Source of the DNA: an uncultured delta proteobacterium
GTDB taxonomy: Bacteria; Desulfobacterota; Desulfobacteria; Desulfobacterales; B30-G6
Direction: 5' to 3'
Assembly (NCBI GenBank): GCA_963823335.1
Contig: CAWGLD010000006.1
Coordinates: 34,559-98,558 of the forward strand
Length of the DNA stretch: 64,000 bases
The notes below the pieces were generated by a model. The model made no database searches. It was not told the DNA's origin and was given only the letters and a program-made list of their open reading frames with translations. How positions within the stretch are numbered: the first letter of the stretch is position 1; every line of letters starts with the position of its first letter. Both the position numbers and the translations under genes were made by a program. This document shows positions 40,949 to 60,422 of the stretch, in pieces.

Positions 40949-40978
40949 TATTTGTTCCCTTACGTAAAGGAGGACCTT

Positions 40979-42091: not shown

Positions 42092-42141
42092 GACATTTAT
42101 TTTGCAACGCACCCAATCAATCATATGAAAGGACACTAAAA

Positions 42142-43230: not shown

Positions 43231-43267
43231 ATTATCAAAAAAAATATAGATCTCCCAAGCTAAAATC

Positions 43268-43355: not shown

Positions 43356-43487
43356 AAATGGACCACTCGGTTTATTTCCTCTTGTTTTGTCTGAATAATT
43401 CATATAGGGAATTCCCAAACAATGGAACCTCCTCAAAATTAAAGACGTTCCCAAATCACCGACCGACACCTTAGAAAGGGAAGCTGA

Positions 43488-44333
43488 ATGGATATCTATT
43501 ACATCGACGGGCAGTATGTAGATGAGGACAAATGTGTACTGTCCGTGAAAGACATTATCGTTCTGAGGGGTTTTGGTGTATTCGATTTCTTGATTACCTA
43601 TAACAAACGACCCTTCTATTTAAAGGAACACGTTCAACGCCTGGAAACATCAGCCCAAAAAATTGGACTCAAGATAAGACACGCCAACGACGAGATCTGT
43701 CGTATTGTCGAAGAAACAATCCGGCGTAACACCCACCACGATGAATCGAACATCCGTATCGTTTACACCGGCGGCATCAGCTCGGATGGCGTCACACCAG
43801 AGGGAAACGGATACCTGATCGTCATGGTGACACCCAAACACCAACTGCCTGAATGGTGGTATTCCGACGGTGCAAAATTGATTACCGCGGAGATCGAGCG
43901 TTTTATCCCCGGCGCCAAAAGCACCAACTATCTGACAGCGGTATGGGCTCTGGAGCGGGCACACGCCATGGGTGCCATCGAGTCCATCTATGTGGATCGC
44001 AACAACCGACTTCTTGAAGGCACCACCACGAATTTTTTCTGTTTCAAGGAGAACAAACTTATCACACCCAAACTGGATATATTGCCGGGTATTACGCGCA
44101 GTGTACTGGTGGACCTGGTCGAGGGACACTTTGATCTGGAAATCAGGGAAATCCATAGGGCTGAACTCTCCTCCATGGAAGAGGTTTTCATTTCTGCCTC
44201 TAATAAAGAGATCGTACCGATTATAGAAGTGGACGACATCAAAATCGGAAACGGTCGGCCCGGTCAGAGAACACAAAAAGTGATGCAGCTTTTCAAAGAC
44301 TACACCACTGCGTACGGACAGGGAAAGGTGTGA
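43488..44333 (+). CDS. class IV aminotransferase (D-amino-acid / branched-chain aminotransferase fold)
   Basis: 281 aa. RGFGVFD, GAKSTNYL, E.TT.NFF, PGITR. Confidence 0.8.
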   Translation: MDIYYIDGQYVDEDKCVLSVKDIIVLRGFGVFDFLITYNKRPFYLKEHVQRLETSAQKIGLKIRHANDEICRIVEETIRRNTHHDESNIRIVYTGGISSDGVTPEGNGYLIVMVTPKHQLPEWWYSDGAKLITAEIERFIPGAKSTNYLTAVWALERAHAMGAIESIYVDRNNRLLEGTTTNFFCFKENKLITPKLDILPGITRSVLVDLVEGHFDLEIREIHRAELSSMEEVFISASNKEIVPIIEVDDIKIGNGRPGQRTQKVMQLFKDYTTAYGQGKV

Positions 44334-44334
44334 C

Positions 44335-45522
44335 ATGGAAGCCATGCCCGGCCCAGCCGGTGACATTCCTCCCCTGACCTGGGCGGAAATCGATCTTGGT
44401 GCGCTGGCACATAATTATCGTGAATTGCGACGTGTCACCAAATCGTCTGCTGTCATGATGGCTGTTGTAAAAGCGGATGGATATGGCCATGGTGCACCCC
44501 AGGTGGCCCGGGTGGCCCTTGAAAATGGTGCCGAACTTCTCGCAGTGGCACGTATGGGTGAGGCTATCAGACTTCGGGAAGCCGGTATATCGGCACCCAT
44601 ACTTCTTTTTGGTCACAGCTTGCCCGCGTATGTAGATATTCTGGCAGTCAGTGACATTCGGGCGGCCCTTAACTCACTGGATGGTGCCCGTTCCATTTCA
44701 GCGCAGGCCGTACGCCGCAAAACAAGCATCAAGGCCCACATCAAGGTTGACACCGGCATGGGGCGTCTGGGTCTTCTGGCGGATGAAATTGCAATCCAGA
44801 CAGATGCCGGCGAACAGTTCAACCGTGCCGTAAATGACATTCTGTCTATCTCCGCCCTTCCCGGCATCGAAGTGGAGGGTATTTTTACGCATTTTGCCAC
44901 TGCAGACAGTCGGGACAAGCGTTATGCAACGACCCAGTTGTCGCGCTTTACCAGACTGCTGGAAACGCTGGAAACGCATTCTTTACGGGTCCGGTATCGC
45001 CACGCCGCCAACAGTGCCGCCATCATTGAAATGCCCGAGTCCCACCTGGATCTGGTGAGACCCGGAATTGCCCAATATGGACTCTGGCCGTCGGATGAAG
45101 TGGACAAGCAACGAATCCATCTCAAGCCGGTAATGTCCATTAAATCCAGGGTAATTCATGTAAAGGATGTTGGTGCTGATTTTGCCGTCAGCTACGGCAG
45201 CACCCATGTTACATCCCATCCCACACGGATTGCCACCATTCCCATCGGTTACGCCGACGGATACAACCGGGTCCTTTCCTCCAATGGCTATATGCTGGTA
45301 AAGGGTGTGCGAGCTCCTATCATCGGCAGGGTTTGTATGGATCTGACCATGATCGATGTGGGTCATGTGCCGGATGTTTCTCTCGAAGATGAAGTCGTTA
45401 TACTGGGATCGCAAGGAGACGAAACCATCTCAGCAGATGAGATTGCAAAAAAGGCAGGCACCATTAATTACGAAATCGTATCGTCGCTGACATCCAGGGT
45501 ACCCAGGGTATATGTTCGGTGA
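44335..45522 (+). CDS. alr: alanine racemase
   Basis: 395 aa. AVVKADGYGHG (PLP Lys), FTHFA.AD, and GYADGY with R.G.VCMD. Confidence 0.85.
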   Translation: MEAMPGPAGDIPPLTWAEIDLGALAHNYRELRRVTKSSAVMMAVVKADGYGHGAPQVARVALENGAELLAVARMGEAIRLREAGISAPILLFGHSLPAYVDILAVSDIRAALNSLDGARSISAQAVRRKTSIKAHIKVDTGMGRLGLLADEIAIQTDAGEQFNRAVNDILSISALPGIEVEGIFTHFATADSRDKRYATTQLSRFTRLLETLETHSLRVRYRHAANSAAIIEMPESHLDLVRPGIAQYGLWPSDEVDKQRIHLKPVMSIKSRVIHVKDVGADFAVSYGSTHVTSHPTRIATIPIGYADGYNRVLSSNGYMLVKGVRAPIIGRVCMDLTMIDVGHVPDVSLEDEVVILGSQGDETISADEIAKKAGTINYEIVSSLTSRVPRVYVR

Positions 45523-45626
45523 GTTTGTTGAGTTCTTTGCGTTTGTTGGGTGTCCCTTAAAAATTGTTTTAACGCTGGTAAACGAACGAACATCGAACAT
45601 CGAACGTCCAACATCGAATTTTGAAT

Positions 45627-46868
45627 ATGAATCGCCCACCTGAAAATACAATAGACTGGCAGACAGGCACATACCACAATCCTCGGGCCGGAGAAACACA
45701 GGCTGACGTCATCATATGCTCTGACTGGGCACCTATTCGCGGATTCAAGGATATCATTCTCCAGAATCCGGAAGCTGTTTATGGTGATCTGCTTCCGGAG
45801 TTGCGAGACGGCGATATGCGGATCGTCAACCTGGAATGCCCCCTAGTGGATCAAGGGGAGCCGGTTTCCAAAAGTGGGGCTGTCCTGAAGGGTCTTTCCG
45901 GGCACATTACAGGACTCACCAGCATTCCCTTCGAGGTGGCCACCCTGGGCAATAATCACGTTTTTGATTACGGGACCGAAGCCTTTGTCCAAACCAGGGA
46001 TCTGCTGTATCAAAACAATATCAAGACCGTTGGTGCCGGCATGTCCATAGAGGAAGCGGCAGTGCCGTTGATTGTCACATCCAGGGGTGTTGCCATCGCT
46101 ATTGTCAATTTCAGTGAAGGTGAGGATCTGACCGCTGCAGGAGAAAACCCGGGCGTTCATGGCTGGGAAATCGATCGGGTGGTCGCTCAGGTTCAGGAGC
46201 TGCAGAGTCAGGTCAATGCAACCATCGTTGTCTGCCATGGTGGTGTCGAGTACATCCCCTATCCCCCACCCTACCTGGCTGCCGCATTTCATCGGATTGC
46301 CGATGCGGGTGCAGACCTGATCATCGGTCACCACCCCCACGTACCCCAAGGTGTTGACATACGAAACCATGTGCCCATCTGCTACAGCCTGGGCAATTTT
46401 GTTTTCTTTCAACACACCCGGCTGCAGTTCAGAAAAATAGGTTATTTTGTTAAAGCCGGAATTGCCGAAAATGGCCTCGCTCGAATGCGTATCGTACCTT
46501 ACGAAATCTTGCCCACCCGACTTCAATTGTTGAAAGAGGAAAAGTATCGCTGGATAATGAAAAAACTCAAAACCATATCTGAGCCTTTGAACGATTTATC
46601 CCGGATCATCCAGGCCTGGAACGGATTTATAAAACACTATGGTATCAACGGTTTTCAGAATGAGGTTGCCAACATTATGGAAACCCTTGCCCGGGAACCT
46701 GCCAAAGGAGCCGCCATGTTCCGAAACCGGATCACGACCATGCAGCACAACCAGCACCTGGTTGACACCATGACCCGTATCATGGACGGAACCATTGACC
46801 AGGCACCGGCATGGGCTCTCGACACTGTGTCCGAATGGCTCACACGGCAGATATCAGACAAACAGTAG
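45627..46868 (+). CDS. CapA-family (PGA_cap) metallophosphoesterase-fold protein without an N-terminal TM anchor
   Basis: NLE.P, LGNNHVFDYG, V.CHGG.EY...P, GHHPHV.QG. The track start at 45621 is TTG and the ATG lies at 45627. TAG stop. Confidence 0.7.
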   Translation: MNRPPENTIDWQTGTYHNPRAGETQADVIICSDWAPIRGFKDIILQNPEAVYGDLLPELRDGDMRIVNLECPLVDQGEPVSKSGAVLKGLSGHITGLTSIPFEVATLGNNHVFDYGTEAFVQTRDLLYQNNIKTVGAGMSIEEAAVPLIVTSRGVAIAIVNFSEGEDLTAAGENPGVHGWEIDRVVAQVQELQSQVNATIVVCHGGVEYIPYPPPYLAAAFHRIADAGADLIIGHHPHVPQGVDIRNHVPICYSLGNFVFFQHTRLQFRKIGYFVKAGIAENGLARMRIVPYEILPTRLQLLKEEKYRWIMKKLKTISEPLNDLSRIIQAWNGFIKHYGINGFQNEVANIMETLAREPAKGAAMFRNRITTMQHNQHLVDTMTRIMDGTIDQAPAWALDTVSEWLTRQISDKQ

Positions 46869-46877
46869 GAAAATTGA

Positions 46878-47813
46878 TTGACCATGCCCCTTTCTGAATC
46901 CAAAAAAATCAGCCGGTTTTATGAGAAAAAGCAGGTCACAGTTCTCATTACCGACTCCGGTCTGGGGGGTATCTCCATTTGTGCAGAAATCGCCAATGAA
47001 TTAAGGCGACGTCATATATTCGAAAATGTTTCACTGGTCTATTTCAACGCCTGGCCGGAGAAAGACCGGGGGTACAATCGGCTCAGCAACACAGCCGAAA
47101 GAATCCAGGTGTTTGATGGCGCTCTGGAAGGGATGATGAAATTTAAGCCGGATTTCATCATGATCGCCTGCAATACCCTGTCTGTTCTCTATCATCGTAC
47201 ACAATTCAGTCACCATGTACGAATCCCGGTTGTTGACATTGTCGGGTTTGGCGTGGAGATGATGGCCGATGCTCTGGAGAAATCATCACAGGCCCAGGCA
47301 GTTATCCTGGGAACCGTAACCACCATCGACAGCCGGTTGCATCACGATCAGCTGATTCAAAGAGGGATTCAACCCGCACAAATCGTTTCGCAGCCGTGCG
47401 ATCAGCTTGCAACACAGATCGAAATGGGACCCGACAGCTCTATTGTATCTGAAATGATTGATACGTTCATGCGCCAGGCAGCCCGAAATATCGATCCTGG
47501 TTCAAGTAAAATATATGCTGCCCTTTGCTGTACCCATTTTGGCTATTGTCAGGAATTGATTCAAGCCAGCCTGGCTGATTTCGCAAATAAACCGGTGACA
47601 ATTCTAAACCCGAACCATAAAATGGCCGCCTGTCTGTCGGCCAACGGCCGCAAGATTCGTTTTTCAGACACCAAAATTCAAATACAGGTGGTTTCAAAGA
47701 TCACTTGGGAAGAAAGGAAGATCAATTCCATTTCGAGTTTCATTCAGTCGCTTTCTGCTGAAACAGCGCATGCTTTAATGAACTATGCGCAAATTCCAAA
47801 CCTGTTTAGCTGA
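46878..47813 (+). CDS. MurI-like Asp/Glu racemase
   Basis: 311 aa. ITDSGLGG, IACNTLS (first catalytic Cys), LCCTHF (second catalytic Cys). Confidence 0.7.
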   Translation: MTMPLSESKKISRFYEKKQVTVLITDSGLGGISICAEIANELRRRHIFENVSLVYFNAWPEKDRGYNRLSNTAERIQVFDGALEGMMKFKPDFIMIACNTLSVLYHRTQFSHHVRIPVVDIVGFGVEMMADALEKSSQAQAVILGTVTTIDSRLHHDQLIQRGIQPAQIVSQPCDQLATQIEMGPDSSIVSEMIDTFMRQAARNIDPGSSKIYAALCCTHFGYCQELIQASLADFANKPVTILNPNHKMAACLSANGRKIRFSDTKIQIQVVSKITWEERKINSISSFIQSLSAETAHALMNYAQIPNLFS

Positions 47814-47880
47814 AAAGAGTTTGCCTGCCCGATCTGCATACAATCCGAATATGACCCAATCAAATCTGGAGGAAGTGAGC

Positions 47881-48873
47881 ATGAAAAGAGTATTAATCAT
47901 TACCGGCCCCGGCGGCGATGCCCAGGGGTGGGGAAATCTTGAAGTAACCCAAACACTCAGCCAGGCACTCAATTCCGATGGCAAGTCGTCTGAAATAGTA
48001 TTTGTCAATACCATGGATGGCTTTTTAAAAGCCATTGACAGCCATACCTATGATATTGTCTGGAGTGCCCTTTACTATATCTCCGAAAAGGAAGATATCA
48101 TCGGGTTGAACATTGATGACGGTGCCTGGCTGGCGGACGAACTCGATCGGCGTCAGATACCCTATATCGGTCCCAGTGCCCAGACCATGAAAGATCTCAT
48201 CAATAAAACAGCAACCCACCGCATTCTCAGTTCAAAAAACATCTCCGTTCCCGAACATCATCAGGTGGATATGGGAGAATCTGTACCCGACATTCGATTT
48301 CCGGCTTTTGTCAAGCCCAGTTGTGAATCGCGATCTGTTGGGATCAGTGATGAGAGCGTTGTCCAGAACACGACAGAGCTTCAAAAACGGATTGCATTCA
48401 TCCACAGGCAATTCGAACAGCCGGCCCTGATCGAGGATTACCTTCCGGGAGAAGAATACACAGTTCTGATGATCGGCAATGGAAAAGATCAGATATTCAT
48501 TCCCGGTGTCGTGACGGTAAAGGGGGGCAACAACGGAAAATTTCCTATCCTGCGAAGTGACATGCGGGGAGTCGGCATTACCAAAATTGGCATACCCGAA
48601 CATAGTGCCGAGGCAGCCAATGCCTTGTGCCTAGAAGCGGTTGAAGCTTTGAACTGTTTGGATCATGTTCGTGTGGATATGCGTTTCGACACCCATTCAA
48701 AATTGAAAATCATCGAAGTCAACGGTATCCCGGGACTCAAGCCGATCAAAAGCTGGAGCCCCCAGATGTTTACACTGTACAATAAATCACCTCAAGGTCC
48801 TCTTGAGGATTATCGACTCCTGCTGCATAAAATTGTGGATTCCGGCCTCACACGCTACAATATATCGCTTTGA
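47881..48873 (+). CDS. ATP-grasp ligase, D-alanine--D-alanine ligase-like
   Basis: MKRVLIITG... after a GGAGG RBS. The central FPAFVKPS.E.RSVGIS, EDYLPG.EYTV and R.DMR......L..IEVNG.PGL are typical of the Ddl/ATP-grasp fold. Confidence 0.7.
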   Translation: MKRVLIITGPGGDAQGWGNLEVTQTLSQALNSDGKSSEIVFVNTMDGFLKAIDSHTYDIVWSALYYISEKEDIIGLNIDDGAWLADELDRRQIPYIGPSAQTMKDLINKTATHRILSSKNISVPEHHQVDMGESVPDIRFPAFVKPSCESRSVGISDESVVQNTTELQKRIAFIHRQFEQPALIEDYLPGEEYTVLMIGNGKDQIFIPGVVTVKGGNNGKFPILRSDMRGVGITKIGIPEHSAEAANALCLEAVEALNCLDHVRVDMRFDTHSKLKIIEVNGIPGLKPIKSWSPQMFTLYNKSPQGPLEDYRLLLHKIVDSGLTRYNISL

Positions 48874-48967
48874 TTATACCCTTTGATGTGATAAGGCTTT
48901 GTGCGGTTTTTCTGATCTGGCCCAGAGGACCAGGTTTTTAATGACGGAATAAATAAAGGTGAATAAC

Positions 48968-49732
48968 ATGAAAATTCTTGTATGTGTCAAACATGTGCCG
49001 GATACTGCGGCAAACATCAAGGTCGTGGGAGATAACGGATTTGACGAGTCGGTAAAATTCGTCATGAATCCCTATGACGAATATGCGGTGGAAGAGGCCG
49101 TCAGAACCGTTCAGAAGAACGGCGGTGAAGTAGTGGTGGTATCTGTGGGAAAGCCAAGTGCCGCCAACACCCTGCGAAGCGCGCTGGCGGTGGGCGCCGA
49201 CAGGGGCATCCTTGTCAAGACAGATGCCCAGTTTCTGGACAGCGAAACGACCGCCCGGGCCCTCAAGGCCGTTATTGATCAGGATGGTGCTCCGGATCTT
49301 ATTTTTACCGGAAAACAGTCCGTAGACAGCGAAGGCATGCAGACCCATTATCGGCTGGCTGGAAAACTGGGCCTCCCTGTTGCATCGGAGGTGTCGGCTT
49401 TCAGTATGGAAAACGATAAAGCCATTGTAGAATGTGAAATTGGCGGTGGCAACCGAGAAGTGATTGAAATGACCATGCCTTGCGTCATCGGTGCTACAAA
49501 GGGTTTGAACGAGCCCCGCTACCCCAAACTGCCCGATATTCTCAAAGCCAAAAAGAAACCTCTTGTTGAAATGGAATTGTCCGATTTGGGCATTGCCATG
49601 TCATCGATTTCATCCACGACAAAGCTGACACCGGTAAAAGAACGTGGTGCAGCGACGATGCTCCAAGGCTCGGTCGGGGATATGGTTGCAGACCTGGTCA
49701 ACCGGCTTGAAAACGAGGTTAAGGTTCTTTAA
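48968..49732 (+). CDS. etfB: electron transfer flavoprotein, beta subunit
   Basis: MKILVCVKHVPDTA, NPYDEYAVEEA, and VVVVSVG together with D.I..GKQS.D. Confidence 0.9.
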   Translation: MKILVCVKHVPDTAANIKVVGDNGFDESVKFVMNPYDEYAVEEAVRTVQKNGGEVVVVSVGKPSAANTLRSALAVGADRGILVKTDAQFLDSETTARALKAVIDQDGAPDLIFTGKQSVDSEGMQTHYRLAGKLGLPVASEVSAFSMENDKAIVECEIGGGNREVIEMTMPCVIGATKGLNEPRYPKLPDILKAKKKPLVEMELSDLGIAMSSISSTTKLTPVKERGAATMLQGSVGDMVADLVNRLENEVKVL

Positions 49733-49913
49733 TAAATTCGGTGCACGAATTTATTCCGTGCCGGGCCCTTCGGACCCGGGTATCTGCAATATACTTGGGT
49801 TTTATTGATAACTACATATTTTTTGATCATCTCCCAAAGAGTTGATCAAAATGAAGGGTTCAAGGATTCCAGGGGTCCAGGGTTCGAGTGAGATGAAGTA
49901 GGGTGTCAGCTAA

Positions 49914-50107
49914 ATGCTTAAGAATTATAAAGAGTTAAACGATTGGAAAAAATCGTATAAACTTTGTTTGGATAAACGATGATATCTGGCGATTTGGGTT
50001 ATGTGGAGAAAGAAAGGCTTGAGGAATTAAGAATGAAGATCGGAGATGTAGAGAGAATGCTAAAAGTGATGATCACATCCCTGGAAAACAAACACTTGAA
50101 TCCTTGA
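49914..50107 (+). pseudogene. internally deleted four-helix-bundle protein gene (23S rRNA intervening-sequence protein family) in the etfB-etfA spacer
   Basis: N-terminal piece MLKNYKELNDWKKSYKLCLD, then a stop. A C-terminal piece lies in another frame: GDLGYVEKERLEELRMKIGDVERMLKVMITSLENKHLNP*. Flanked by GGGTTCAAGG-type repeats. Confidence 0.5.
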
Positions 50108-50180
50108 ATCCTGGACTCCTTGAACCCTTTCTCCCAACTTATTGGGAGAAGAACCATATTTTTAACGCACGAGGGAGAGT

Positions 50181-51116
50181 ATGAGCATGTCCAATATTGG
50201 TGTATTGATAGAAATGGATGGGCAAGAGATAAAGGCACCCAATTACGGTGTCTTGACGGCAGCCTGCGCGGGCGGGAATGTCGTAGCGCTGGTTTTTACC
50301 GATGACGGTCAGGCCTGTAAAGGCGAGTTGGAACGATTTGGCGCAGAGAAGATTGTGACAATGTCTGCGGAGAGTCCGGTTCAAAAGGCAAACCTGCTGG
50401 CAGCCGCGATCAAAGAATATGATCTGCGTGTGCTGATGGGACTTTCCAGCGCACGGGGTCGCGATCTTCTGAGCCGATGCGCCTGCATACTTGATGCACC
50501 GCTGGCTCTGGATGCCATACAAGCAAACCTGTCGGACGGAACGGTAGTAAAAAGCCATTTTTCAGGGAAAACAACGGCAGCCATAAAACTCACAGGCGAA
50601 ACGCTGCTGATCGGCCTGCGTCCCAATGTGATCGAGCCCATTGAAAATCCCGTGTCCGCTGAACGTATCTCCTTCAGCGCAGAAGCAGGCAACAGCGATG
50701 GTTTTAAAGTCCTTGAAGTCAAAAAGGGGGGTTCAGGTGCCATTGATCTGACCGAAGCTGAAATTATCATTACCGGTGGACGCCCCATGGATTCGGCTGA
50801 GAACTTCAAGATCCTTTATGCTTGTGCCAAGGAGCTGGGCGCTGCCGTGGGGGCCTCTCGTGCGGCTGTGGACGCAGGTTTCGCACCACACAGCATGCAG
50901 GTGGGCCAGACCGGCAAGACGGTTTCGCCCAAACTTTATATTGGCTGTGGCCTGTCCGGTTCTGTTCAGCATTTTGCTGGAATGAAAACTTCCCGGGTGA
51001 TTGTGGGTATCAACACGGACAAAGATGCACCCATTTTCGGTAAGTGCGACTATGGCATCGTAGGGGATCTGTTCGAAGTCGTTCCGGCATTGACGGAAGC
51101 ACTAAAAGCTCGTTAG
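50181..51116 (+). CDS. etfA: electron transfer flavoprotein, alpha subunit
   Basis: 311 aa. C-terminal FAD domain GASRAAVDAG..P...QVGQTGK.V.P.LYI..G.SG..QH..G. TAG stop. Confidence 0.9.
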   Translation: MSMSNIGVLIEMDGQEIKAPNYGVLTAACAGGNVVALVFTDDGQACKGELERFGAEKIVTMSAESPVQKANLLAAAIKEYDLRVLMGLSSARGRDLLSRCACILDAPLALDAIQANLSDGTVVKSHFSGKTTAAIKLTGETLLIGLRPNVIEPIENPVSAERISFSAEAGNSDGFKVLEVKKGGSGAIDLTEAEIIITGGRPMDSAENFKILYACAKELGAAVGASRAAVDAGFAPHSMQVGQTGKTVSPKLYIGCGLSGSVQHFAGMKTSRVIVGINTDKDAPIFGKCDYGIVGDLFEVVPALTEALKAR

Positions 51117-51120
51117 ACGA

Positions 51121-51268
51121 TTAGAAGCTATCTCAAAAAAGTTTTTTAGCCCAATTTCTGTGTTGGTCCCTTGCTTCAACTCCTCGGAATACTTGAGTAT
51201 GCCTGCGGGTTGAAGTTCGGGCCCGCCTTGAACTTGAGCCAAAACCCTTTTTTTGAGATGGCTTCTAG
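51121..51268. mobile_element. 148-bp MITE-like element, copy 2 (inverted relative to copy 1)
   Basis: TTAGAAGCTATCTCAAAAAA ... TTTTTTGAGATGGCTTCTAG. Begins 5 nt after the etfA stop. Confidence 0.8.
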
Positions 51269-51320
51269 ACTGTTAGACCCTATGCGGCCTATTAGTCTAA
51301 CAGCCTAACAGCCTAAATAC

Positions 51321-52601
51321 CTACCGTTTTTCAGGTATGAGTCCCTTCTCTACCACCATTCTGGCCCAGTCGTCAAAGGCACTCAAATTCGCCGTGGTAT
51401 GTGCATCCGTATGATAGTCACAACTGGCTACCCGCTGAATGACATCAAATGCCTGCCTGTCTTCCGGGAGATACAGTGGTTTCAATTCTGACGAATCCCT
51501 GCCGGATTCCAGGTATTCACGATGTGACTGGCAATCGCGCTGGAATGCATCCTCACTGAAGAAATTGAGATTGTCCAGTACACCGAAACAGTGACGGGCC
51601 TTGTGGACACCGAAATCGCAAAGTATTTTTCGCCCGCGTTCCCCATCGGAAAGGGCCTGTTTGTTCGGGTTCTTTTCACCCGTGCTTCCACCGGACTGAA
51701 CGGTGGGAAGCCCGGTCACCCACATGTTCAAACGCGCCACGGCCACATTTAAAAGATTCATGGCATCATTTGAATAATCGAGATCGCCATCGGGTCTTGT
51801 GGTGCAGGGCATGCCGCCAAACATGCACAACATTCCGGGGTTGACTGTCTGGGTTACGGCCAGCATGAACAGGACCTCGGCATGGGTGATCACGATGCAG
51901 GCTTCGGGTGTCTGAGGGGCTGTTCTTCCTGCCAGCGGCATGGTTGTCAAGCGTAGATTGTTTCCAGACTTGGCGCTCTTTATGAGCGCATCCATCATGT
52001 TGTCCATGCAGATCAGAGGGGACTTGACACCGCAGATGGAATCGTGCCAGTCTTCCCGACCGGAAAACCATTTTACAGCGGCGTCCTCTTCCATGTAGGC
52101 GCTGCAGGTAACCTTGATGCAGCCGCTCAGCCGGTCCATGATCTGGTTACATTTGAGCGGATCACCTTTTTGGACCTTGACCGGCTGGCTTAGAAATCGA
52201 ACGACATCGAGGTTTTCCCCAATAACCCCGATGAGATGTTCCAGTTCTTCGTAGGATGCCGGCATGGGGTAACGATCTGCTTCCCGGTATAAAAATGGTG
52301 GAATACCGCCGATCCCTAGCGTGTTTTGCCCCTCGTCGCCTTGAAACGATTTTGCCGCCGAGGACAGGCATTGATCCACCAATTCCGGAAGTAGATAGAT
52401 ACGACCGGCAGAAGAATCGTAGCCGGCAAGACCGGTGCCTTCCAAAATAGAAATGACATCCTGGTTTTTTGTTTCTATGCCGACTTCGGCCAGGACTGAT
52501 TTGGTGGTGTCATGAATTCTCTCATAGGATTCTTTTTCTTTCAGAAGTGCGTCTTGATAAACTTCGGGAGCCTTTTCTATCAATGCGTTGATATGGGTCA
52601 T
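51321..52601 (-). CDS. MttB-superfamily methyltransferase, non-pyrrolysine type
   Basis: About 426 aa from ATG 52601 (GGAGA RBS, 14 nt after the upstream stop). Colinear with the MttB at 58280..59797. It has Ser at the aligned Pyl column (LPTVQSGG-S-TGEK). TAG stop. Confidence 0.75.
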   Translation of the reverse strand: MTHINALIEKAPEVYQDALLKEKESYERIHDTTKSVLAEVGIETKNQDVISILEGTGLAGYDSSAGRIYLLPELVDQCLSSAAKSFQGDEGQNTLGIGGIPPFLYREADRYPMPASYEELEHLIGVIGENLDVVRFLSQPVKVQKGDPLKCNQIMDRLSGCIKVTCSAYMEEDAAVKWFSGREDWHDSICGVKSPLICMDNMMDALIKSAKSGNNLRLTTMPLAGRTAPQTPEACIVITHAEVLFMLAVTQTVNPGMLCMFGGMPCTTRPDGDLDYSNDAMNLLNVAVARLNMWVTGLPTVQSGGSTGEKNPNKQALSDGERGRKILCDFGVHKARHCFGVLDNLNFFSEDAFQRDCQSHREYLESGRDSSELKPLYLPEDRQAFDVIQRVASCDYHTDAHTTANLSAFDDWARMVVEKGLIPEKR

Positions 52602-52617
52602 GACATTTTCTCCAGTC

Positions 52618-55041
52618 TTAAGCGAGTATCTTCTTCCGTTCAGGATCATACAATTGACGGTTGAGTTCCAGTTGGATCGGGAAGACTGTTTTATAAGACT
52701 CGATTTCATATCCATCTGTGACCCCGCTCATGTCTGCGGGAAGATATCCATAACAGATATTTTTTCCGATGGTGTGACCGTACCCTGAACTGGAGGTTAC
52801 ACCCACCACGGTGCCGTTGTGCAGAATAGGCGCGCTTCCCTGGAGCATTAGCGGCTTTTCCGCATGGATGGTGAAAGTGCACAGCTTCCAAGGGGCACCT
52901 TCGGTCTTGATTCTTGCCAGGGCCTCTTTGCCGATAAAATCATTCTTGTCAAGCGCAACACAAAAACCCAGACCGACATCAAATGGGGTGTATTCGGGAG
53001 TGAGCTCGGAACCCCAGTCGGCGTATCCTTTTTCCAGATGCAGGGAGGCGATTGTTCGGTATCCGGCGTTTTTAATTCCGAGATCCTGACCGGCCTCCCA
53101 TAGTGTATCGTATACATGGCCAGCAAATTCTGTGGGGATATACAGTTCGTAACCGAGTTCCCCCACATAGGTCACCCGAAAGGAAATGACCGGTGCATAC
53201 CCTACGCTGAAAGATTTGCAGGTCCCGAACGGAAAACTCTTGTTGGTCAGGTCTTCTTGGGTTGTTTTTTTCAACAGTTCTCTCGATTTGGGCCCGATGA
53301 CATTGATGACAGCATAGGCCGACGTAACTTCCCGGAATGAAACGGTGCCGTCAGTGGGCATGTGGTTTTCGATCCACCACGATGTGCGGAGACCGAAGGC
53401 CGTGCCGACAACGATCATAAATTTATCTGTTGTCAAGCGACCGACGGTCATGTCACATTCGATGGTGCCGCGTCCATTGCACATCTGCGTGTAGATCACC
53501 TTCCCCACAGGCTGGTCGATCTGATTGGCACAAAGCCGGTTCAGAAACGGAAGGGCGCCCGGACCTTGCACCTCGAATTTGCAGAAAGAGCTCTGGTCGA
53601 TTAGCACCACATTTTCGCGAGCGTTTTGATGCTCGGCAGCCACATATCCAAACCAGTTCGGGGTTTCGAAAGTAACATCATCTTGCGGCTCAATACCTTC
53701 CGGCGCAAACCAGTTGGCCCTTTCCCACCCGTATTTTGCCCCGTAAACGGCACCTTTATCTTTGAGCTGGTAATAGAGGGGGCTACGTCTCACCCCTCTT
53801 GCGGAGTCATGCTCTTCGTGAGGCCAATGAATGGTATAATGTTTGCCGTATAGTTCCCTTGTTCTTTCCACATTGTACCTTCGGCTATGGTGATACGGAC
53901 CAAATCTTCGGATATCCAGCGGCCAGATATCGAGACTCGGCTCTCCCTCGATAATCCATTCAGCCATCATCCGCCCGGCGCCACCACCGGCAGCTATTCC
54001 GAACGCGTTGAATCCCGCAGCTACGAAACAGTTATCGAGTTCCGGGGCGGGCCCCATAATGGCATCACCGTCCGGGGTAAATGCCTCCGGCCCATTGACC
54101 AGACGGGCAATACCGGCTTCTTCGAGGCACGGCGTTCGCCGCATGGCCGGATCTGATAGCGATTGGAAATGGTCATAATCGGGTTCCAGCAACTGAGAAA
54201 TGAAATCATTGCCCACGCCATTGATGGCCCACGGTATTCCGTTGCGTTCATAGCCGCCCATGACCAGACCACCCACTTCGTCTTTATAATAGAGAAGACT
54301 GTCTTTGTCGCGGATGGTGGGAAGGTTTGGTGGCATCCCCTGGATCTCATCCGTGACTAGAAACTGGTGCTGGAAAGGAACCAGGGGTATGTTGACGCCC
54401 AGCATTTCCCCTACCTGGTATCCCCACATGCCCGTACAGTTGACGACAATATCGCATTGAATATCACCTTTGTCGGTTTTTACCGTGGTAACCCGTCTCT
54501 TGTCGAATTCAAAGCCGGTCACCAGCGTGTGCTCATATATGCTCGCACCTCGATTCCTGGCACCTTTGGCCATGGCCTGGGTGATCCCCGCAGGATCCGC
54601 CTGGCCATCTGTGGGCATAAAAGCTGCGCCAATAATATCATCTATAGTAATGATCGGGCAAAGATCGTAAGCCTCCTTGGGCGTGATAATGTTCATCTCC
54701 AGTCCGAAACTGCGTGCCGTGGTAGCCCCCTTTTTCAGTTCGTACATACGCTCTTTTGTGCTGGCCAGATGAAGACAACCACTTTTTTTCCAGCCCGTGG
54801 TCAATCCTGTTTCAGCCTCGAGCTGTTCGTAGAGACTAACGCTGTACTGCAGCATCCGGGTAATGTTTCGTTCACTGCGCAGTTGACCCACAAGCCCGGC
54901 AGCATGCCAGGTGGAACCACTGGTGAGCTCTCCCTTTTCGAGTATCACCACATCGTTCCATCCCATCTTGGTTAGATGGTAGGCTGTGCTGCAACCAATA
55001 ATGCCACCGCCAATAATTACAACCTGTGCACGATCTTGCAT
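52618..55041 (-). CDS. dimethylglycine/sarcosine dehydrogenase-family flavoprotein (DAO domain fused to a GcvT-like folate-binding domain)
   Basis: 807 aa. VVIIGGGIIGCSTAYHL dinucleotide fold. TSGSTWHAAG (covalent-FAD His context of DMGDH/SARDH). C-terminal aminomethyltransferase fold. Confidence 0.85.
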   Translation of the reverse strand: MQDRAQVVIIGGGIIGCSTAYHLTKMGWNDVVILEKGELTSGSTWHAAGLVGQLRSERNITRMLQYSVSLYEQLEAETGLTTGWKKSGCLHLASTKERMYELKKGATTARSFGLEMNIITPKEAYDLCPIITIDDIIGAAFMPTDGQADPAGITQAMAKGARNRGASIYEHTLVTGFEFDKRRVTTVKTDKGDIQCDIVVNCTGMWGYQVGEMLGVNIPLVPFQHQFLVTDEIQGMPPNLPTIRDKDSLLYYKDEVGGLVMGGYERNGIPWAINGVGNDFISQLLEPDYDHFQSLSDPAMRRTPCLEEAGIARLVNGPEAFTPDGDAIMGPAPELDNCFVAAGFNAFGIAAGGGAGRMMAEWIIEGEPSLDIWPLDIRRFGPYHHSRRYNVERTRELYGKHYTIHWPHEEHDSARGVRRSPLYYQLKDKGAVYGAKYGWERANWFAPEGIEPQDDVTFETPNWFGYVAAEHQNARENVVLIDQSSFCKFEVQGPGALPFLNRLCANQIDQPVGKVIYTQMCNGRGTIECDMTVGRLTTDKFMIVVGTAFGLRTSWWIENHMPTDGTVSFREVTSAYAVINVIGPKSRELLKKTTQEDLTNKSFPFGTCKSFSVGYAPVISFRVTYVGELGYELYIPTEFAGHVYDTLWEAGQDLGIKNAGYRTIASLHLEKGYADWGSELTPEYTPFDVGLGFCVALDKNDFIGKEALARIKTEGAPWKLCTFTIHAEKPLMLQGSAPILHNGTVVGVTSSSGYGHTIGKNICYGYLPADMSGVTDGYEIESYKTVFPIQLELNRQLYDPERKKILA

Positions 55042-55210
55042 GAATCCTCTCCTTATCGGATCGTTTCACGATCCAATCTGACGCGGCCTGGCCGCTTTTT
55101 TGAAATTAGCAGACATTGTATTTTTTGTGTTTTGTTTTTCGTATTTTGTGTTTGTGTTTGTGGTTGGAATTAGGCCAAATTCTTTTCGCAATTAGACTGT
55201 AAACCACTAA

Positions 55211-55356
55211 CAGCTTATTGCTTAAAGCTTATAGCCACCCGCCAACCCTTGTGTGCTGTGATGCTATGATGCTTGGAAGCTGGGTTGCTGCTGTCCGCTC
55301 ATAGCCGTCAGCTACCCTCCAACCCTGGTATCCCCCTCCACCCCTCGAACCCTTTC
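55211..55356. repeat. family A repeat copy upstream of the DMGDH-like gene
   Basis: AAGCTTATAGCC...GCTGCTGTCCGCTCATAGCCGTCAGCTACCCTCCAACCC...CCTCGAACCCTTTC. Shares blocks with 19.9, 31.6 and 50.1 kb. Confidence 0.6.
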
Positions 55357-55357
55357 T

Positions 55358-57361
55358 TTACCCCGTTGCCTCATCGACGATTTCAGCAATATCTTTGACA
55401 GTTGCATCTTCCCGGCAGTCCGAAATGCCGTCGGTTAGCATGGTCACACAGAATGGACAGGCCGCGGCAACCGTTTTCGAACCGGTTGACAGTAACTCTT
55501 CGGCACGTTCTATGTTGATGCGTTTTCCAATGGTTTCCTCCATAAACATCCTTGCGCCACCAGCGCCACAGCAAAAGCCTTTGTCCCCGTGGCGTTCGGG
55601 CAAAACCAATTCACCACCTGTGTTAATGCTGCGCAGGAGTTCTCGCGGAGCAGCGATAATGCCGTTCCACCTCCCCAGATAGCAAGAATCATGAAAAGCA
55701 ATATCTCCCAAAGAAGTACCGTTGGGCTTCAGACGACCCTGTTTCACCAAATCCAGCAAAAACGCCGTGTGGTGGACAACGTCAAATTTTGCGCCAAACT
55801 GAGGGTATTCGTTTTTTATGATGTTGTAACAGTGAGGGCAGCCTGTAAGAATTTTTTTGGGTTTGTAGTGATTGAGGGTCTCAACGTTTTCCTGAATCAT
55901 GGTCTGAGCCAGGTATTCGTTTCCAGCCCTGCGGGCCATATCTCCGTTACAGCGTTCCTCCTGACCGAGTATGGCAAAATTGATTCCGGCTCTTTTTAAT
56001 ACGCGCACCAGCGCTCGAGATATTTTTTTCCCACGATCGTCGAATGATCCGGCACATCCGACGAAATAGAGAAGGTCCGTTTCGGGTTGATCCGACATGA
56101 GGGGTACATCCATGTCTTTGCACCAGTCAGCCCGGGTGTCGTCGGAAAACCCCCATGGATTCGACTGGTTTTCCAGATTCGTAAATGTTTCCTGCATTTC
56201 CGGCGGGAATGCAGCCTCCATAAGAACCTGGTATTTTCTAGCTTCCAGGATAATATCCAGATGCTGGATATTGACAGGACAAATGTCTTCGCAGGCCCGG
56301 CAGGTAGTGCATGACCACAGGACATCTTCAGTTACGTGAGACGCTTCTCGAATCAACGGTTCGACAGCGTCGATGTTGCCTGCCAAAAGTGGTCCTGCCT
56401 GATCGAAAAGATCGTGTTTGATATCGGACACCACTCTCTTTGGTGAAAGAGGCTTGCCGCTGTAGTCTGCCGGACATTGCTCCTGGCACCGGCCACACTC
56501 CGTGCAGGCATACAGATCGAGTACCGATTTCCAGTTTAAATCCGAAACACGGCCGAGTCCGAAGCTGTCCGCATCCTCGTCTTCGATATCTGTTTTAATG
56601 ATCGCTTTTTCCCGTTCCAAAGGCTTTAAATAAACATTGGGGACGGCTGCCAGCAGATGCAGATGCTTGGACCCGGGAATATAAATGAGAAACCCAAGAA
56701 TCGTCAGGATGTGGATCCAGTAGGATATTTCATACCCTATCGTTAACTGACCTACAGTCAGAGACGAAAAAGCGAATAGATTCGCCAAACCGGCTGACAC
56801 CGTGAAAAAGGCTGAATAGTCAAAACCATCCTCAGCGGGTTGCGACATCTGGAAGGCATTGACAAGGTGAAACGACACGATGATGACGGCTGTGAAAAGA
56901 ATGATAAGTTTTGCATCCAGATTATTGGTTAAATATTCAGGTTTTTCAATCAAGCGTCTGTAAAGAGCATACCCAAGCCCAAACAGAACAAAGATTGCGA
57001 GGGTGTCTGCGACAAAGAGGTACGCACCATAGAGGCCAGGCGATAAATGAGAAACGTGAAAACCGGGAAATACGCCTTGAACCATCAACTCCAGGGAGTG
57101 AGGCTGGACAGCTATAAAACCAAAAAATATCAAGGTATGCGCCATGCCTGGGAGGAACTTTCTCCTGACATTCGACTGGCCGATCACGTCCGTGAAAAGT
57201 GTTTTGACCCTCTCGGGAAAACGATCTATTTGCAGGGACGCCTTGCCTTTTACGGCCATCATAATTCTGACAAGATGCCTGACCTTTACAAAAAAAAGAC
57301 TGAATGCGGTTATAAGGAAGACCGCCATTATCAAAGATTTAATTATCGTATAGGTACCCAT
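55358..57361 (-). CDS. membrane-bound Fe-S oxidoreductase (HdrD/DsrK-like with an N-terminal multi-TM domain); candidate ETF:menaquinone oxidoreductase
   Basis: 667 aa. About 6 N-terminal TM helices. CTECGRCQEQCP and CTTCRACEDICP ferredoxin motifs. Two CCG-type Cys-rich domains (VGCAGSF, GCPHC, FCCGAGG). Confidence 0.7.
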   Translation of the reverse strand: MGTYTIIKSLIMAVFLITAFSLFFVKVRHLVRIMMAVKGKASLQIDRFPERVKTLFTDVIGQSNVRRKFLPGMAHTLIFFGFIAVQPHSLELMVQGVFPGFHVSHLSPGLYGAYLFVADTLAIFVLFGLGYALYRRLIEKPEYLTNNLDAKLIILFTAVIIVSFHLVNAFQMSQPAEDGFDYSAFFTVSAGLANLFAFSSLTVGQLTIGYEISYWIHILTILGFLIYIPGSKHLHLLAAVPNVYLKPLEREKAIIKTDIEDEDADSFGLGRVSDLNWKSVLDLYACTECGRCQEQCPADYSGKPLSPKRVVSDIKHDLFDQAGPLLAGNIDAVEPLIREASHVTEDVLWSCTTCRACEDICPVNIQHLDIILEARKYQVLMEAAFPPEMQETFTNLENQSNPWGFSDDTRADWCKDMDVPLMSDQPETDLLYFVGCAGSFDDRGKKISRALVRVLKRAGINFAILGQEERCNGDMARRAGNEYLAQTMIQENVETLNHYKPKKILTGCPHCYNIIKNEYPQFGAKFDVVHHTAFLLDLVKQGRLKPNGTSLGDIAFHDSCYLGRWNGIIAAPRELLRSINTGGELVLPERHGDKGFCCGAGGARMFMEETIGKRINIERAEELLSTGSKTVAAACPFCVTMLTDGISDCREDATVKDIAEIVDEATG

Positions 57362-57436
57362 TGATTCTCCACCGTGATTCAGATGCGCTCGCTAACCCCG
57401 CAGCAAGCTAAGGGGGAATGCGCTCGTTGTTTCGGT

Positions 57437-58249
57437 TCAAGACACAATCACGACGTTAACGCCCATTTTATCGATATATTTCTGAAAATCGGAAGGTATT
57501 TTCCGGTTGGTTATAAGGACATTAATGTGTTTAAGAGGTGCAATCGATATTTCAGCAACCAGACCGAATTTGAAATGATCCGCCATGACGATCACCTGAC
57601 CCCGCGTCTGCTGAATCATACTTCTTTCGATGGCAGCTATTTCAAAATCCGGTGTGCTCACACCGGCACTGAGACTGAGCCCGTCGGCACCGATAAAAAC
57701 CTTGGTGGCGTTTACCTGTCGGATCATTTCCATGGTCAACGGCCCTGAAAGCGCGTGGGTTGTGGGGTTGTATCTACCGGGCAACAACACCAGCTCGGCT
57801 GCCATGTTTACCGTTTCCGACTCCGGTATTACACCGAGATTGTTGGTAAATATGGTAAAAGGCAGGGCGGGGTCCACAAAACGAACCAACATCGATGCCG
57901 TGGTTCCTTCCCCAATGTAAACCGTGTCATGGGGTTCGATCAGGGACGCAGCTTTTTGGGCAATTTTTTCTTTTTGCTCACGATTCTCATTTATGCTGTT
58001 TCGGTAATGAAAGTTGCTTGTCACCCGCTCCTGCCGGAACACGGCCCCGCCGTGGGTTCTTTCCACAAGCCCCGATTGTTCTAGAACATCCAGATCTCGG
58101 CGAATCGTCATCTCGGATACACCGAGCAGTTTGCTCAAATTTGAACTCCGCGTACTGAAATCTTCTTTCAGGATATCGATTATTCGCTGCTGCCGCTCGA
58201 CAGGCAGGAACGAATTATTTTTACTCTTGTTTATCAGTGTGTGTTTCAT
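57437..58249 (-). CDS. DeoR-family transcriptional regulator
   Basis: 270 aa. N-terminal HTH ERQQRIIDILKEDFSTRSSNLSKLLGVSEMTIRRDLDVLE. C-terminal DeoR sugar-binding-like domain. Confidence 0.85.
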   Translation of the reverse strand: MKHTLINKSKNNSFLPVERQQRIIDILKEDFSTRSSNLSKLLGVSEMTIRRDLDVLEQSGLVERTHGGAVFRQERVTSNFHYRNSINENREQKEKIAQKAASLIEPHDTVYIGEGTTASMLVRFVDPALPFTIFTNNLGVIPESETVNMAAELVLLPGRYNPTTHALSGPLTMEMIRQVNATKVFIGADGLSLSAGVSTPDFEIAAIERSMIQQTRGQVIVMADHFKFGLVAEISIAPLKHINVLITNRKIPSDFQKYIDKMGVNVVIVS

Positions 58250-58279: not shown

Positions 58280-59797
58280 TCAGGTATTCATTACCAGACT
58301 AGCCGGATCGAAGTCGGGATTTTTCGGTTCAACTCCCCATTCTTTTTCCACTTCAGTCACAAACCTTCGTAAATCAGCGGCTACGGACTCAGAAAGAGGT
58401 GTCGGTTTATGGTTGACTAATATATCTTTGACCTTTGCATTGGCCAAATCATAGGGGTCGGGTTTTCCGGCATTTATCCAGGTGGTTCGATTCATGCGTT
58501 GAAAAAATTTCGGTCTGCTTTGTGTCCGCATATATTTCAGGGTCATGGGTGACATTAGAAAATCGGACTTGGAGCCCCCTTGCCTAACTTCATCCACACA
58601 TAATGTCTCATCACTGACTTCGACCCCACCAAGAAAATACTTTACCATATCAATTATGTCGCTATCTAATAACAATTGGGCATAATCCACAACCATGCCA
58701 CACTCTAACATTCCTGCTCCGTATAAGACATTGTTCCCTGACATTGCCGCAATGAGAGCTGTTAGAGTTTTTTCATGGCCGGCTTGTGCCCCACCGGCGA
58801 TATTGCTATCCGTCTACGTCCCGCCGCTCCAGGAGGGTACTTTGTAAAACTGGGCCATTTGGGCGTTCATGGCGGCAAATAACGCCATTTCCGGAGAACC
58901 CACCGCAGCTTCGGCACTTTTTAGATCCATTGATGTCGTTGAACTGCTGCAAATCACCGGGGCTCCGGGACGCACAGCTTGGTGCATCACGACACAGGCG
59001 AGAAATTCGGCATTTTGAACAGCCTGGGTGCCAGCCAGGGTAATCGGACTGGTAGCGCCCGAGAGCGCCATCGTTGTAAAACGAACAGGAATGCTGAGTT
59101 CGGCGGCCTTCATGCCAATTTCGCAGCAATGTTTGACCAGGCGCAAAGGGGTAACCGGGCAGGTAGAGGCGCATATCAGGGGGTTATCCACCAAGGTATC
59201 TTCTCCACCGGCAATGATGGCTGACATTTGATAGATTTTTTCCAGACACCTCCCGTCACCGGGTCCTAAGCTGACCGGTTTGTCCGTGTTATTTACAAGT
59301 GCTTCATAATTATGGAGTGTATAGGTAACAGGGTCTACATCCAGAGAAGAAACAGGTCGATGACAAACGCCATAGGCATCCAGTGCATCCATCAATCTTG
59401 CTCCGGCAGCCAGATCTTTTTTGGTCGAGTCCCTGATTTTACCGGTATTGATATCCACAACACTGACACCTTCGCCAAATGAGGTGAAGGTTACCCTTTT
59501 ACCTTCCATGATGTAACTTTTATCATGGTTACGTGCGCCCAGCGTAATTCTGGACGGCGCTGTTCTTATGGCTTTTTCTACAAGGTAGTGAGGTATTTTG
59601 ACTATTTTTTTGTCGATATCTACACGGCAGCCGATGGAATGGAAGAGATCGATGGCGTCATCATCTTCCACATAAACACCGGTTTTTTCGAGTATTTCAA
59701 GGCTGGCATAGTGGATATCGGTAATCTCATCGTCGGACAATACCTTGAAATCAATACCTTTGATTTGATATTTGCCGCTGCAAATGGCACGATTCAT
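58280..59797 (-). CDS. mttB: trimethylamine methyltransferase MttB with one in-frame UAG (candidate pyrrolysine codon) at 58814..58816
   Basis: Track ORFs 58814..59797 and 58280..58744 share one frame. The 23 codons between them are open. The joined product is 505 aa. Context is KVPSWSGGT-UAG-TDSNIAGGAQAGHEKT. GGAGG RBS before ATG 59797. Confidence 0.7.
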
Positions 59798-60422
59798 ATT
59801 TATCCTCCTTTCACATGGTAATGGTTTTCGGTGTGCGCCTTTAAAGCTGGATGCTTATCTCACGCGAACCGTGCCACAACTTCCGTATTAAATCTATGGC
59901 TTAGCAAAGAAATGCAGCATCGTAGCTGTTGTTTCCCCCGGTGTATATTATGTTTGAATCTGATGTCAAGTGTTAGTTTTAAAATGATAATGAACATAGA
60001 GATAAAAAGGGAAGACAATCATATTTATGGAATTTAATGGATACGAATATTTGTTTTCAATATACTAGATTAATTAGATATAAAAATAGTACAGAATATG
60101 TAAACCAGATCTTTCATGTCTGCAAGCGCGTTGCCGCGAGGGATTGAAGCTACCCATTTCCAGCTGATTAATTACCTATCGAATCTGTCAATCATCACTA
60201 ATACGAACATTAATCAATTTAGCTGCATTTTTTTTGACGACAAATGCAAAACAACCCCTGCATTAACCTGCCTTAAAGTATTGACACGATTCAATATATT
60301 TTATATCGTCAACAGATTGTGGTTATGCATATGTTTATGAAACGCGTCGTTCTCGCTTATATGGTCAAAGATTTAACATCCTGCTTGCAGGCAAATTTTC
60401 TATCCTTAAAGGAATCTCCAAT

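Follow-up and report, generated by a model that had tools for sequence, protein, structure and literature searches.

A probable pyrrolysine-dependent trimethylamine methyltransferase gene with an in-frame amber codon in a Desulfobacteraceae-like bacterium

Here, we describe a methyltransferase gene from a stretch of 64,000 nucleotides (nt) of contig CAWGLD010000006.1 (assembly GCA_963823335.1, uncultured delta proteobacterium); this whole stretch is called the window below. The gene, mttB, is interrupted by a single in-frame amber codon (UAG). It is most probably an intact gene for a pyrrolysine (Pyl)-dependent trimethylamine:corrinoid methyltransferase of a Desulfobacteraceae-like bacterium, of marine origin and sulfate-reducer type, in which UAG is read as Pyl, a reading that we give a probability of about 0.88. 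An earlier note on the same DNA had proposed that the TAG encodes Pyl, and this proposal is supported by the position of the codon in the Pyl column, by a score above the cutoff of the profile TIGR02369 and by comparative data that speak against a pseudogene, a split gene and a sequencing error. Pyl-dependent MttB proteins of marine Desulfobacteraceae have already been published (PMC8318568), and the gene described here is a further lineage. It adds one more well-supported Pyl-MttB lineage in sulfate-reducing Desulfobacterota, in support of published work according to which these bacteria and methanogens are competitors for trimethylamine. Of all the elements described below, only the replicated synonymous constraint downstream of the UAG could lead somewhere new.

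Gene structure, active site and conservation of the amber codon

The mttB frame is 505 codons long, and translation meets just one stop within it, the TAG at codon 328 (Table 1). The two minus-strand open reading frames (ORFs) that the earlier note had joined across this codon, 58814..59797 (327 amino acids, aa) and 58280..58744 (154 aa), indeed share a common frame with the TAG as the sole interruption, and the stretch of 23 codons that separates the TAG from the next Met is open and reads as the note had given it (TDSNIAGGAQAGHEKTLTALIAA). The residues around codon 328 are VPSWSGGT-O-TDSNIAGGAQAGHEK. Gene callers automatically split mttB into products of 327 aa and 154 aa, and in annotation these fragments should be joined as one Pyl protein. 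Colinearity of the joined product with the MttB family, claimed before from inspection, was recovered with both family profiles: the product matches Pfam PF06253 (MTTB) with 296.5 bits over positions 30-498 of 500, and NCBIfam TIGR02369, the curated equivalog of the Pyl type, with 578 bits over positions 2-469 of 469, where the cutoff is 525 bits.

The best solved relative is MttB of Methanosarcina barkeri (PDB 7xcl/7xcm; E=1e-94 over residues 7-486, 38% identity), with which the product shares fold and length (PDB 7XCL/7XCM/7XCN; Li et al. 2023, PMC9842639). That the TAG falls in the Pyl column was verified by alignment: the UAG residue X328 is aligned exactly with X334, which is Pyl334 of 7xcl. 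In the M. barkeri enzyme, Gly110 and Tyr364 are 100% conserved among Pyl-MttBs and important for the activation of Pyl, and Met249 and Gly372 line the corrinoid/substrate pocket (PMC9842639). All four residues are kept here, as G108, Y359, M243 and G367. Since Tyr359, Gly367, part of the TIM barrel and the dimerisation loop are all encoded 3' of the TAG, the 327-aa product by itself could not be an active enzyme. Apart from these likenesses, the gene differs from its M. barkeri counterpart in its bacterial host, where the methyl group presumably goes to tetrahydrofolate and not to coenzyme M, in one additional codon past the Pyl site and in having neither mttC nor mttP adjacent to it. The non-Pyl members of the MttB superfamily, such as the glycine betaine methyltransferase MtgB of D. 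hafniense (PDB 2QNE/9YCE; E=5e-63), have the TIM barrel in common with it, but have a sense codon in the Pyl column and quaternary amines as substrates, whereas the gene described here has TAG in that column and scores above the Pyl-type cutoff.

The amber codon is conserved among all close relatives in which it could be read. Another ENA assembly contains a sister contig (ERZ25039603 contig_10409, 363,856 bp) that is syntenic and 99.2-99.7% identical to the window; it has the same TAG, and four of the five codon differences between the two mttB genes are synonymous. A scan of metagenome collections (JGI and NCBI WGS records) gave 49 orthologous loci with 77-92% nt identity to the mttB of the window. 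The codon is TAG in each of the 35 related contigs that span it, namely the sister contig and 34 orthologs, and never TAA or TGA, although the number of synonymous substitutions per site (dS) reaches values above 1. Given these 35 contigs, the conservation of TAG at codon 328 is far beyond chance. TAG occupies the same column even in clades of 40-55% identity, and about 33 of the 120 database homologs listed (40-94% identity) are called at a length of 326-333 aa, which corresponds to a stop in that column; full-length non-Pyl homologs among these 120 are at most 43% identical. The Pyl column of 45 MttB-family cores, taken from 85 fetched loci, is TAG in 34, which mostly lie within 10 kb of pylS, and a sense codon for V, W, I, C, S or L in the other 11.

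The lineage is abundant in sediment metagenomes, with two clusters of 429 and 59 members at 90% identity. Named relatives of the proteins in the window come from metagenome-assembled genomes (MAGs) of Desulfobacteraceae, Deltaproteobacteria and Thermodesulfobacteriota, some of them with locus tags of the DRH90/DRI24 type, which we take to mark MAGs from the Guaymas Basin. A single ortholog (L127) has an extra in-frame stop, at codon 135 and 5' of the TAG, which a sequencing error or a genuine pseudogene copy could explain.

Marine Desulfobacteraceae have been described with the full machineries for Pyl and selenocysteine and with a Pyl-MttB that carries an amber codon at position 327 of 485; it is expressed in metatranscriptomes of the Baltic Sea and the Columbia River, and relatives occur in the Guaymas Basin (Kivenson 2021, PMC8318568). 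These 'Deltaproteobacteria-bbl' MAGs resemble the present case in family-level group, in type of habitat and in the phenomenon itself (Kivenson, Paul & Valentine 2021, PMC8318568). The amber codon lies at nearly the same position here (328 of 505), and in both loci a transcriptional regulator and a non-Pyl MttB homolog are found. The two genes belong to different ortholog groups, with YVAGQ-O-GDSK around the amber codon in 'Deltaproteobacteria-bbl' (PMC8318568) and WSGGT-O-TDSN here.

Decoding of the UAG codon

Under Pyl decoding, translation would begin with the ATG at 59797, which follows a strong ribosome-binding site, and codon 328 would be read by a UAG-decoding tRNA, presumably Pyl-tRNA(CUA), in competition with release factor 1. 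The genes pylT and pylSBCD would then be located elsewhere in the genome. The resulting enzyme of 505 aa would hold Pyl in its active site beside Tyr359 and Gly108 and, by analogy with the M. barkeri enzyme, would demethylate trimethylamine and pass the methyl group to a corrinoid protein whose gene likewise lies elsewhere. Its yield would depend on the supply of Pyl-tRNA and possibly on the sequence context downstream of the UAG.

Several observations weigh against Pyl decoding. TAG is not depleted as a stop codon: among 49 ORFs counted in the window, which has a GC content of 47.7%, 10 end in TAG, 21 in TAA and 18 in TGA. ARAGORN calls no tRNA-Pyl in the window, where its sole call is a tRNA-Leu(GAG); this negative result is meaningful because the same tool, as a positive control, calls tRNA-Pyl(CUA) in three pyl loci of Desulfobacterota. 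Seeds for PylSc, PylSn, PylB, PylC, PylD, the corrinoid protein, RamA and MT2 were confirmed with NCBIfam and came from loci L022, L041, L073, L138 and L139, and the PylS seeds were validated against the PDB. With tblastn, none of the five Pyl seeds has a match in the window, the sister contig or the flanks, about 82 kb in all, with about 18 kb beyond the window contributed by the sister contig (flanks of about 7.5 kb and 9 kb). The same sequence holds no match to the seeds for the corrinoid protein, RamA and an MtbA-type MT2. For the corrinoid protein, four seeds were used at E<=0.01, with no match in the window, L005, L135 or L136. The Pyl and corrinoid seeds also have no match in the 49 orthologous metagenome loci (two corrinoid seeds, E<=1e-5). 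Because pyl and corrinoid genes are missing from both the ~82 kb and these loci, Pyl decoding in this particular lineage is something that we infer. Two positions of the protein depart from the M. barkeri enzyme, with Glu109 in place of Thr111 and Arg219 in place of Glu225; on account of these substitutions the contacts with the corrinoid protein may differ. Finally, the 103 nt from the UAG onwards do not fold more stably than dinucleotide shuffles (z = -0.97) or than synonymous recodings (z = +0.93).

The use of UAG in the window is thus that of an ordinary stop, and the codon is ambiguous. Since TAG ends 10 of the 49 ORFs, insertion of Pyl must compete with termination. This fits the view of UAG as an ambiguous codon in Pyl users, for which no targeted insertion mechanism is known and in which TAG usage ranges from 1% to 27% among Pyl-containing archaeal genomes (PMC12626013). 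The earlier note had named seven other genes of the window with TAG as their stop, and this holds for the tsaC-like gene, plsB, the transketolase gene, the capA-like gene, etfA and the second MttB gene; the seventh, uspA, was not identified. Its statement that neither pylT nor pylSBCD is visible in the 64 kb agrees with the ARAGORN and tblastn searches. At two other TAG stops, those of plsB (11955-14588) and of an HcyBio-family gene (21928-23097), the next gene starts three codons further on in the same frame (window 14586-14600 and 21916-21930), so that read-through of UAG would fuse the neighbouring proteins. The frame of the ORF at 337-1014 is open for at least 30 codons beyond its TAG.

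In this lineage, mttB stands apart from the pyl genes and from the corrinoid partner. A corrinoid gene next to mttB, as in L001-L003, is typical but not strictly defining. Desulfobacterota genomes with pylT, pylS, pylB, pylC, pylD and a split mttB or mtbB do exist: among species-representative genomes at least 574 stretches encode PylS, and three of the best 80 of these loci belong to Desulfobacterota MAGs (L041, L063, L073), most of the others being from Firmicutes. In these three, pylS and pylT adjoin a split mtbB and/or mttB or further pyl genes. Two contigs from other projects, L138 and L139, share a compact bacterial monomethylamine/Pyl island. It contains genes for a corrinoid protein, a split mtmB, ramA, an mtbA-like URO-D gene, pylSc, pylB, pylC and pylD, together with another URO-D gene, cobW and a gene for 120 aa that is probably pylSn. 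A candidate for PylC in the window, the ATP-grasp protein at 47785-48873, was rejected as a Ddl-like ligase, with 31 bits against a cutoff of 248.

The absence of pyl genes, pylT and a cognate corrinoid gene from the ~82 kb and the 49 orthologous loci would also be expected if the UAG were read through in a genome without pyl genes, with a suppressor or near-cognate tRNA inserting a canonical residue in an enzyme of other chemistry or substrate. The non-Pyl relatives of MttB tolerate V, W, I, C, S or L at the Pyl column, in line with such a residue. However, a canonical residue could be encoded more simply by a sense codon, and yet TAG is kept in 35 of 35 related contigs at dS above 1. Moreover, the protein retains Tyr359 and Gly108, whose counterparts are 100% conserved specifically in Pyl-MttB, and it scores above the cutoff of a Pyl-specific equivalog. 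The TAG-type genes of other fetched genomes are found near pyl clusters, and pyl clusters need not adjoin mttB. We therefore regard read-through with a canonical residue as improbable.

That the gene is a pseudogene, in which a nonsense mutation leaves only a non-functional fragment of 327 aa, is suggested by the separate 327-aa and 154-aa products of the gene callers and by the use of TAG as a normal stop in this genome. The sequence past the TAG argues against this. Among the orthologs, the ratio of nonsynonymous to synonymous substitutions (dN/dS, Nei-Gojobori) is 0.02-0.07 upstream of the TAG and still 0.06-0.29 downstream of it; no ortholog has a stop in the frame past the TAG, and the alignments of 24 full-length or near-full-length orthologs (77-92% nt identity) are gapless, without a frameshift. 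A decaying gene would also be hard to reconcile with a TAG that is never swapped for TAA or TGA and that recurs in the same column in clades 40-55% identical, and this explanation is very unlikely.

Equally unlikely is a split gene, in which polypeptides 1-327 and 352-505, the latter from an internal ATG at 58744, would assemble without Pyl. An in-frame ATG does follow 23 codons past the TAG, but the supposed spacer codons between the UAG and Met352 have a ratio of nonsynonymous to synonymous polymorphism (pN/pS) of 0.108 and encode the QAGHEKT motif of the family. Inspection of the sequence upstream of ATG352 found no Shine-Dalgarno sequence comparable to the AAGGAGG of the mttB start, and in clades of about 50% identity or less residue 352 is Leu or Gln and not Met. 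An internal start at Met352 is ruled out by the missing Shine-Dalgarno sequence and the constrained spacer codons. A false TAG from a sequencing or assembly error, a general possibility in any metagenome-assembled genome, can be practically dismissed, since the same TAG is found in the independent ENA assembly and in 34 contigs of the metagenome collections (JGI, NCBI WGS). From these comparisons, mttB is neither a pseudogene nor an assembly error nor a split gene, and Pyl decoding is the reading that we prefer.

Synonymous constraint and RNA folding downstream of the UAG

Synonymous variation in mttB is suppressed in a zone that begins 39 nt past the UAG. A scan with 15-codon scan windows over 23 unique full-length or near-full-length sequences, the mttB of the window and 22 orthologs, places the gene-wide minimum of synonymous variability at codons 341-366, where the lowest scan window has 0.092 against a gene mean of 0.325 (column-permutation p=0.00025). 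If only amino-acid-invariant codons are considered, the values are 0.133 in the zone and 0.344 (Mann-Whitney p=1e-6). The first five codons past the UAG are almost frozen as well. In the frozen stretch, neighbouring Asn codons (AAC, AAT) and neighbouring Ala codons (GCG, GCA) differ in their synonymous choice, which argues against simple selection for optimal codons.

The same pattern is found in other Pyl genes. In a Firmicutes clade of mttB (n=14; loci L006, L010, L012, L013, L015-L021, L025, L026 and L031), the ten lowest scan windows start 10-20 codons past the UAG (0.13 vs 0.455, p=0.0004). In bacterial mtbB, which encodes a non-homologous Pyl enzyme (n=15; loci L041, L043, L051, L055, L060, L061, L070, L071, L073, L074, L077, L079, L082 and L084), the ten lowest start 14-25 codons past the UAG (0.40 vs 0.61, p=0.021). 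The synonymous constraint past the UAG is real and replicated: in three independent datasets, two clades of mttB and one of mtbB, the gene-wide minimum is found 10-40 codons past the Pyl codon. It bears on the question whether the insertion of Pyl has a cis-acting signal. One speculative interpretation, which we consider rather unlikely, is that the constraint, 13-38 codons (some 40-115 nt) past the UAG, reflects a cis element at the sequence level by which insertion of Pyl would be favoured over termination in bacteria where UAG is a common stop; if so, the element would be tied to the decoding of UAG and not to any one protein. Alternatively, selection on codon choice could be stronger around the active site, which lies just past Pyl in both enzymes.

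The region directly downstream of the UAG also matches the Rfam model of the mttB 'pyrrolysine insertion sequence', PYLIS_3 (Table 1). As in the known PYLIS elements (RF02510; mtmB PYLIS), the 100 nt past the UAG match in register and the region is under constraint at the nucleotide level; here, by contrast, half of the consensus pairs are broken (four of eight are non-canonical in the mttB of the window) and the fold is not significant. In a study on the prediction of Pyl genes from the conservation of the 100 nt downstream of the UAG, the mttB region has been reported to be without a common structure (Theil Have et al. 2013, PMC3639795). In view of this report, the broken pairs and both z scores given above, we read the match as probable in-register nucleotide homology to Pyl-mttB genes and not as an RNA element. 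As a real RNA structure in this mttB, PYLIS_3 is ruled out by the fold energy and the broken pairs.

Downstream of the UAG, a small hairpin (nt 69-90) occurs in the same register, with differing stem sequences, in several clades. Among 18 clade representatives, 68.8% of the cells are paired as against 63.5% in shuffles, a value reached by 4 of 500 shuffles, and 6 pairs show double-sided changes, which 3 of 500 shuffles reached; a control with a slide of +3 gave a nearly equal covariation score (0.234 vs 0.243). The stability of the hairpin in the present clade does not exceed that of recodings of the same peptide. With this lack of excess stability and covariation that is only suggestive, the hairpin was rejected as the cause of the synonymous constraint.

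Gene neighbourhood and further observations

Table 1. Coordinates of mttB, of features within and around it, and of linked genes in the window.
Feature	Position	Strand	Basis
mttB, Pyl-type trimethylamine:corrinoid methyltransferase gene	58280..59797	-	505 codons and TGA stop, one in-frame UAG; profile and structure matches
In-frame UAG, putative pyrrolysine codon 328	58814..58816	-	aligned to X334 (Pyl) of 7xcl; TAG in sister contig and 34 orthologs
177 codons 3' of the UAG, with QAGHEKT motif, Tyr359, Gly367, rest of TIM barrel and dimerisation loop	58283..58813	-	dN/dS, residue mapping
Shine-Dalgarno sequence AAGGAGG, 6 nt upstream of the mttB ATG	59804..59810	-	sequence
Zone of suppressed synonymous variation, codons 341-366, 39-114 nt 3' of the UAG	58700..58777	-	synonymous-variability scan
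Match to Rfam RF02510, PYLIS_3 (mttB 'pyrrolysine insertion sequence')	58714..58816	-	55 bits vs gathering 38, model positions 1-100/100, from the UAG on
DeoR-family transcriptional regulator, 30 nt downstream of mttB	57437..58249	-	profile matches
Fe-S/CCG-domain oxidoreductase (HdrD/GlpC/DsrK-like)	55358..57361	-	profile matches; syntenic in L090, L098, L109, L122
DAO-FAO_M-GCV_T fusion, dimethylglycine/sarcosine-dehydrogenase-like folate-dependent N-demethylase	52618..55041	-	profile matches; linked to Pyl-mttB in L090, L107, L108, L109, L122
Divergent non-Pyl MttB-superfamily paralog	51321..52715	-	PF06253 81.7 bits; TIGR02369 65.6 bits vs 525 cutoff
Electron transfer flavoprotein, beta (48959-49732) and alpha (50181-51116)	48959..51116	+	profile matches; syntenic in L090, L109, L122

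The gene for the DeoR-family regulator adjoins mttB in the sister contig, L090, L098 and L122 as well, and L109 has a more divergent DeoR (62%) at a distance of about 7 kb in a rearranged cluster. Linkage of a Pyl-mttB to the fusion protein resembling dimethylglycine dehydrogenase (DMGDH), the iron-sulfur (Fe-S)/CCG protein, the electron transfer flavoprotein (ETF), DeoR and the MttB paralog recurs, with rearranged gene orders, in L090, L098, L107, L108, L109 and L122, which suggests that the neighbourhood at 48959-58249 is a methylamine/betaine catabolic island. Upstream of mttB, genes for a tripartite ATP-independent periplasmic (TRAP) transporter are found. The paralog has Ser at the Pyl column, as noted before, and lacks the QAGHEKT motif and the Tyr; the family alignment was used for this assignment, as the BLASTP alignment with MttB stopped short of the Pyl column.

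The Fe-S/CCG oxidoreductase would serve as acceptor of the ETF electrons. MttB and its paralog may carry out a corrinoid-dependent demethylation alongside an oxidative one that depends on flavin and folate and passes its electrons to ETF and the Fe-S protein. Such a mixed corrinoid/flavin route for the breakdown of methylamine or betaine is hinted at by the conserved linkage of this ortholog group of mttB, whose neighbours are genes for the folate-dependent DMGDH-like demethylase, for ETF and for the Fe-S oxidoreductase and not corrinoid or pyl genes. The 'Deltaproteobacteria-bbl' locus is arranged differently, with an ABC transporter, a GntR/PhnR regulator and a corrinoid protein within 10 genes (PMC8318568), while the neighbours here are DeoR, Fe-S/CCG, DMGDH-like, ETF and TRAP transporter genes, with no corrinoid protein in ~82 kb. 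Past one edge of the window, the sister contig encodes a hydantoinase, an acyl-CoA ligase and a molybdo-hydroxylase; past the opposite edge, it encodes IMPDH and DnaE. A further Pyl-type mttB, 54% identical and split into 327+157, is found in L004 (1-9500), where, unlike in the window, it adjoins an ethanolamine-utilisation microcompartment cluster (EutB, EutC, BMC shell, aldehyde dehydrogenase, EutN, EutQ).

An element of 146 nt is present in at least three copies that are 98-99% identical, two in the window (34916-35061 and 51122-51267) and one in L005 (642-790), past the right edge of the window and upstream of dctP. It is a near-perfect palindrome with terminal inverted repeats (minimum free energy -60.1 kcal/mol, z = -7.9) and has no match in Rfam; it looks like a miniature inverted-repeat transposable element or an element of the repetitive extragenic palindromic type. 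The copy between the convergent ends of etfA and the MttB paralog gene could be a bidirectional terminator. The other copy in the window lies in a region of about 3.2 kb (32900-36100) without any ORF of at least 150 aa, together with the tRNA-Leu(GAG) (32823-32908). This region also contains one copy (34322-34384) of a direct repeat of 63 nt, whose other copy, at 21303-21365, is 78% identical.

A gene for 93 aa (~11310-11591, minus strand; L136 20001-20282) carries a precomputed Pfam label as the magnetosome protein MamI. This label was rejected: a separate Pfam scan at E<=1e-5 did not recover the match, and the surrounding genes have housekeeping functions (NamZ, RNase H, PlsB), which leaves no magnetosome island at this site. 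The plus strand at 40952-48873 encodes an alanine dehydrogenase, a HisC-like aminotransferase, a class IV (D-amino-acid/branched-chain) aminotransferase, an alanine racemase, a PGA_cap/CapA-like protein, an Asp/Glu-racemase-like protein and the Ddl-like ATP-grasp ligase, a cluster that may serve the formation of a polymer or peptide containing D-amino acids.

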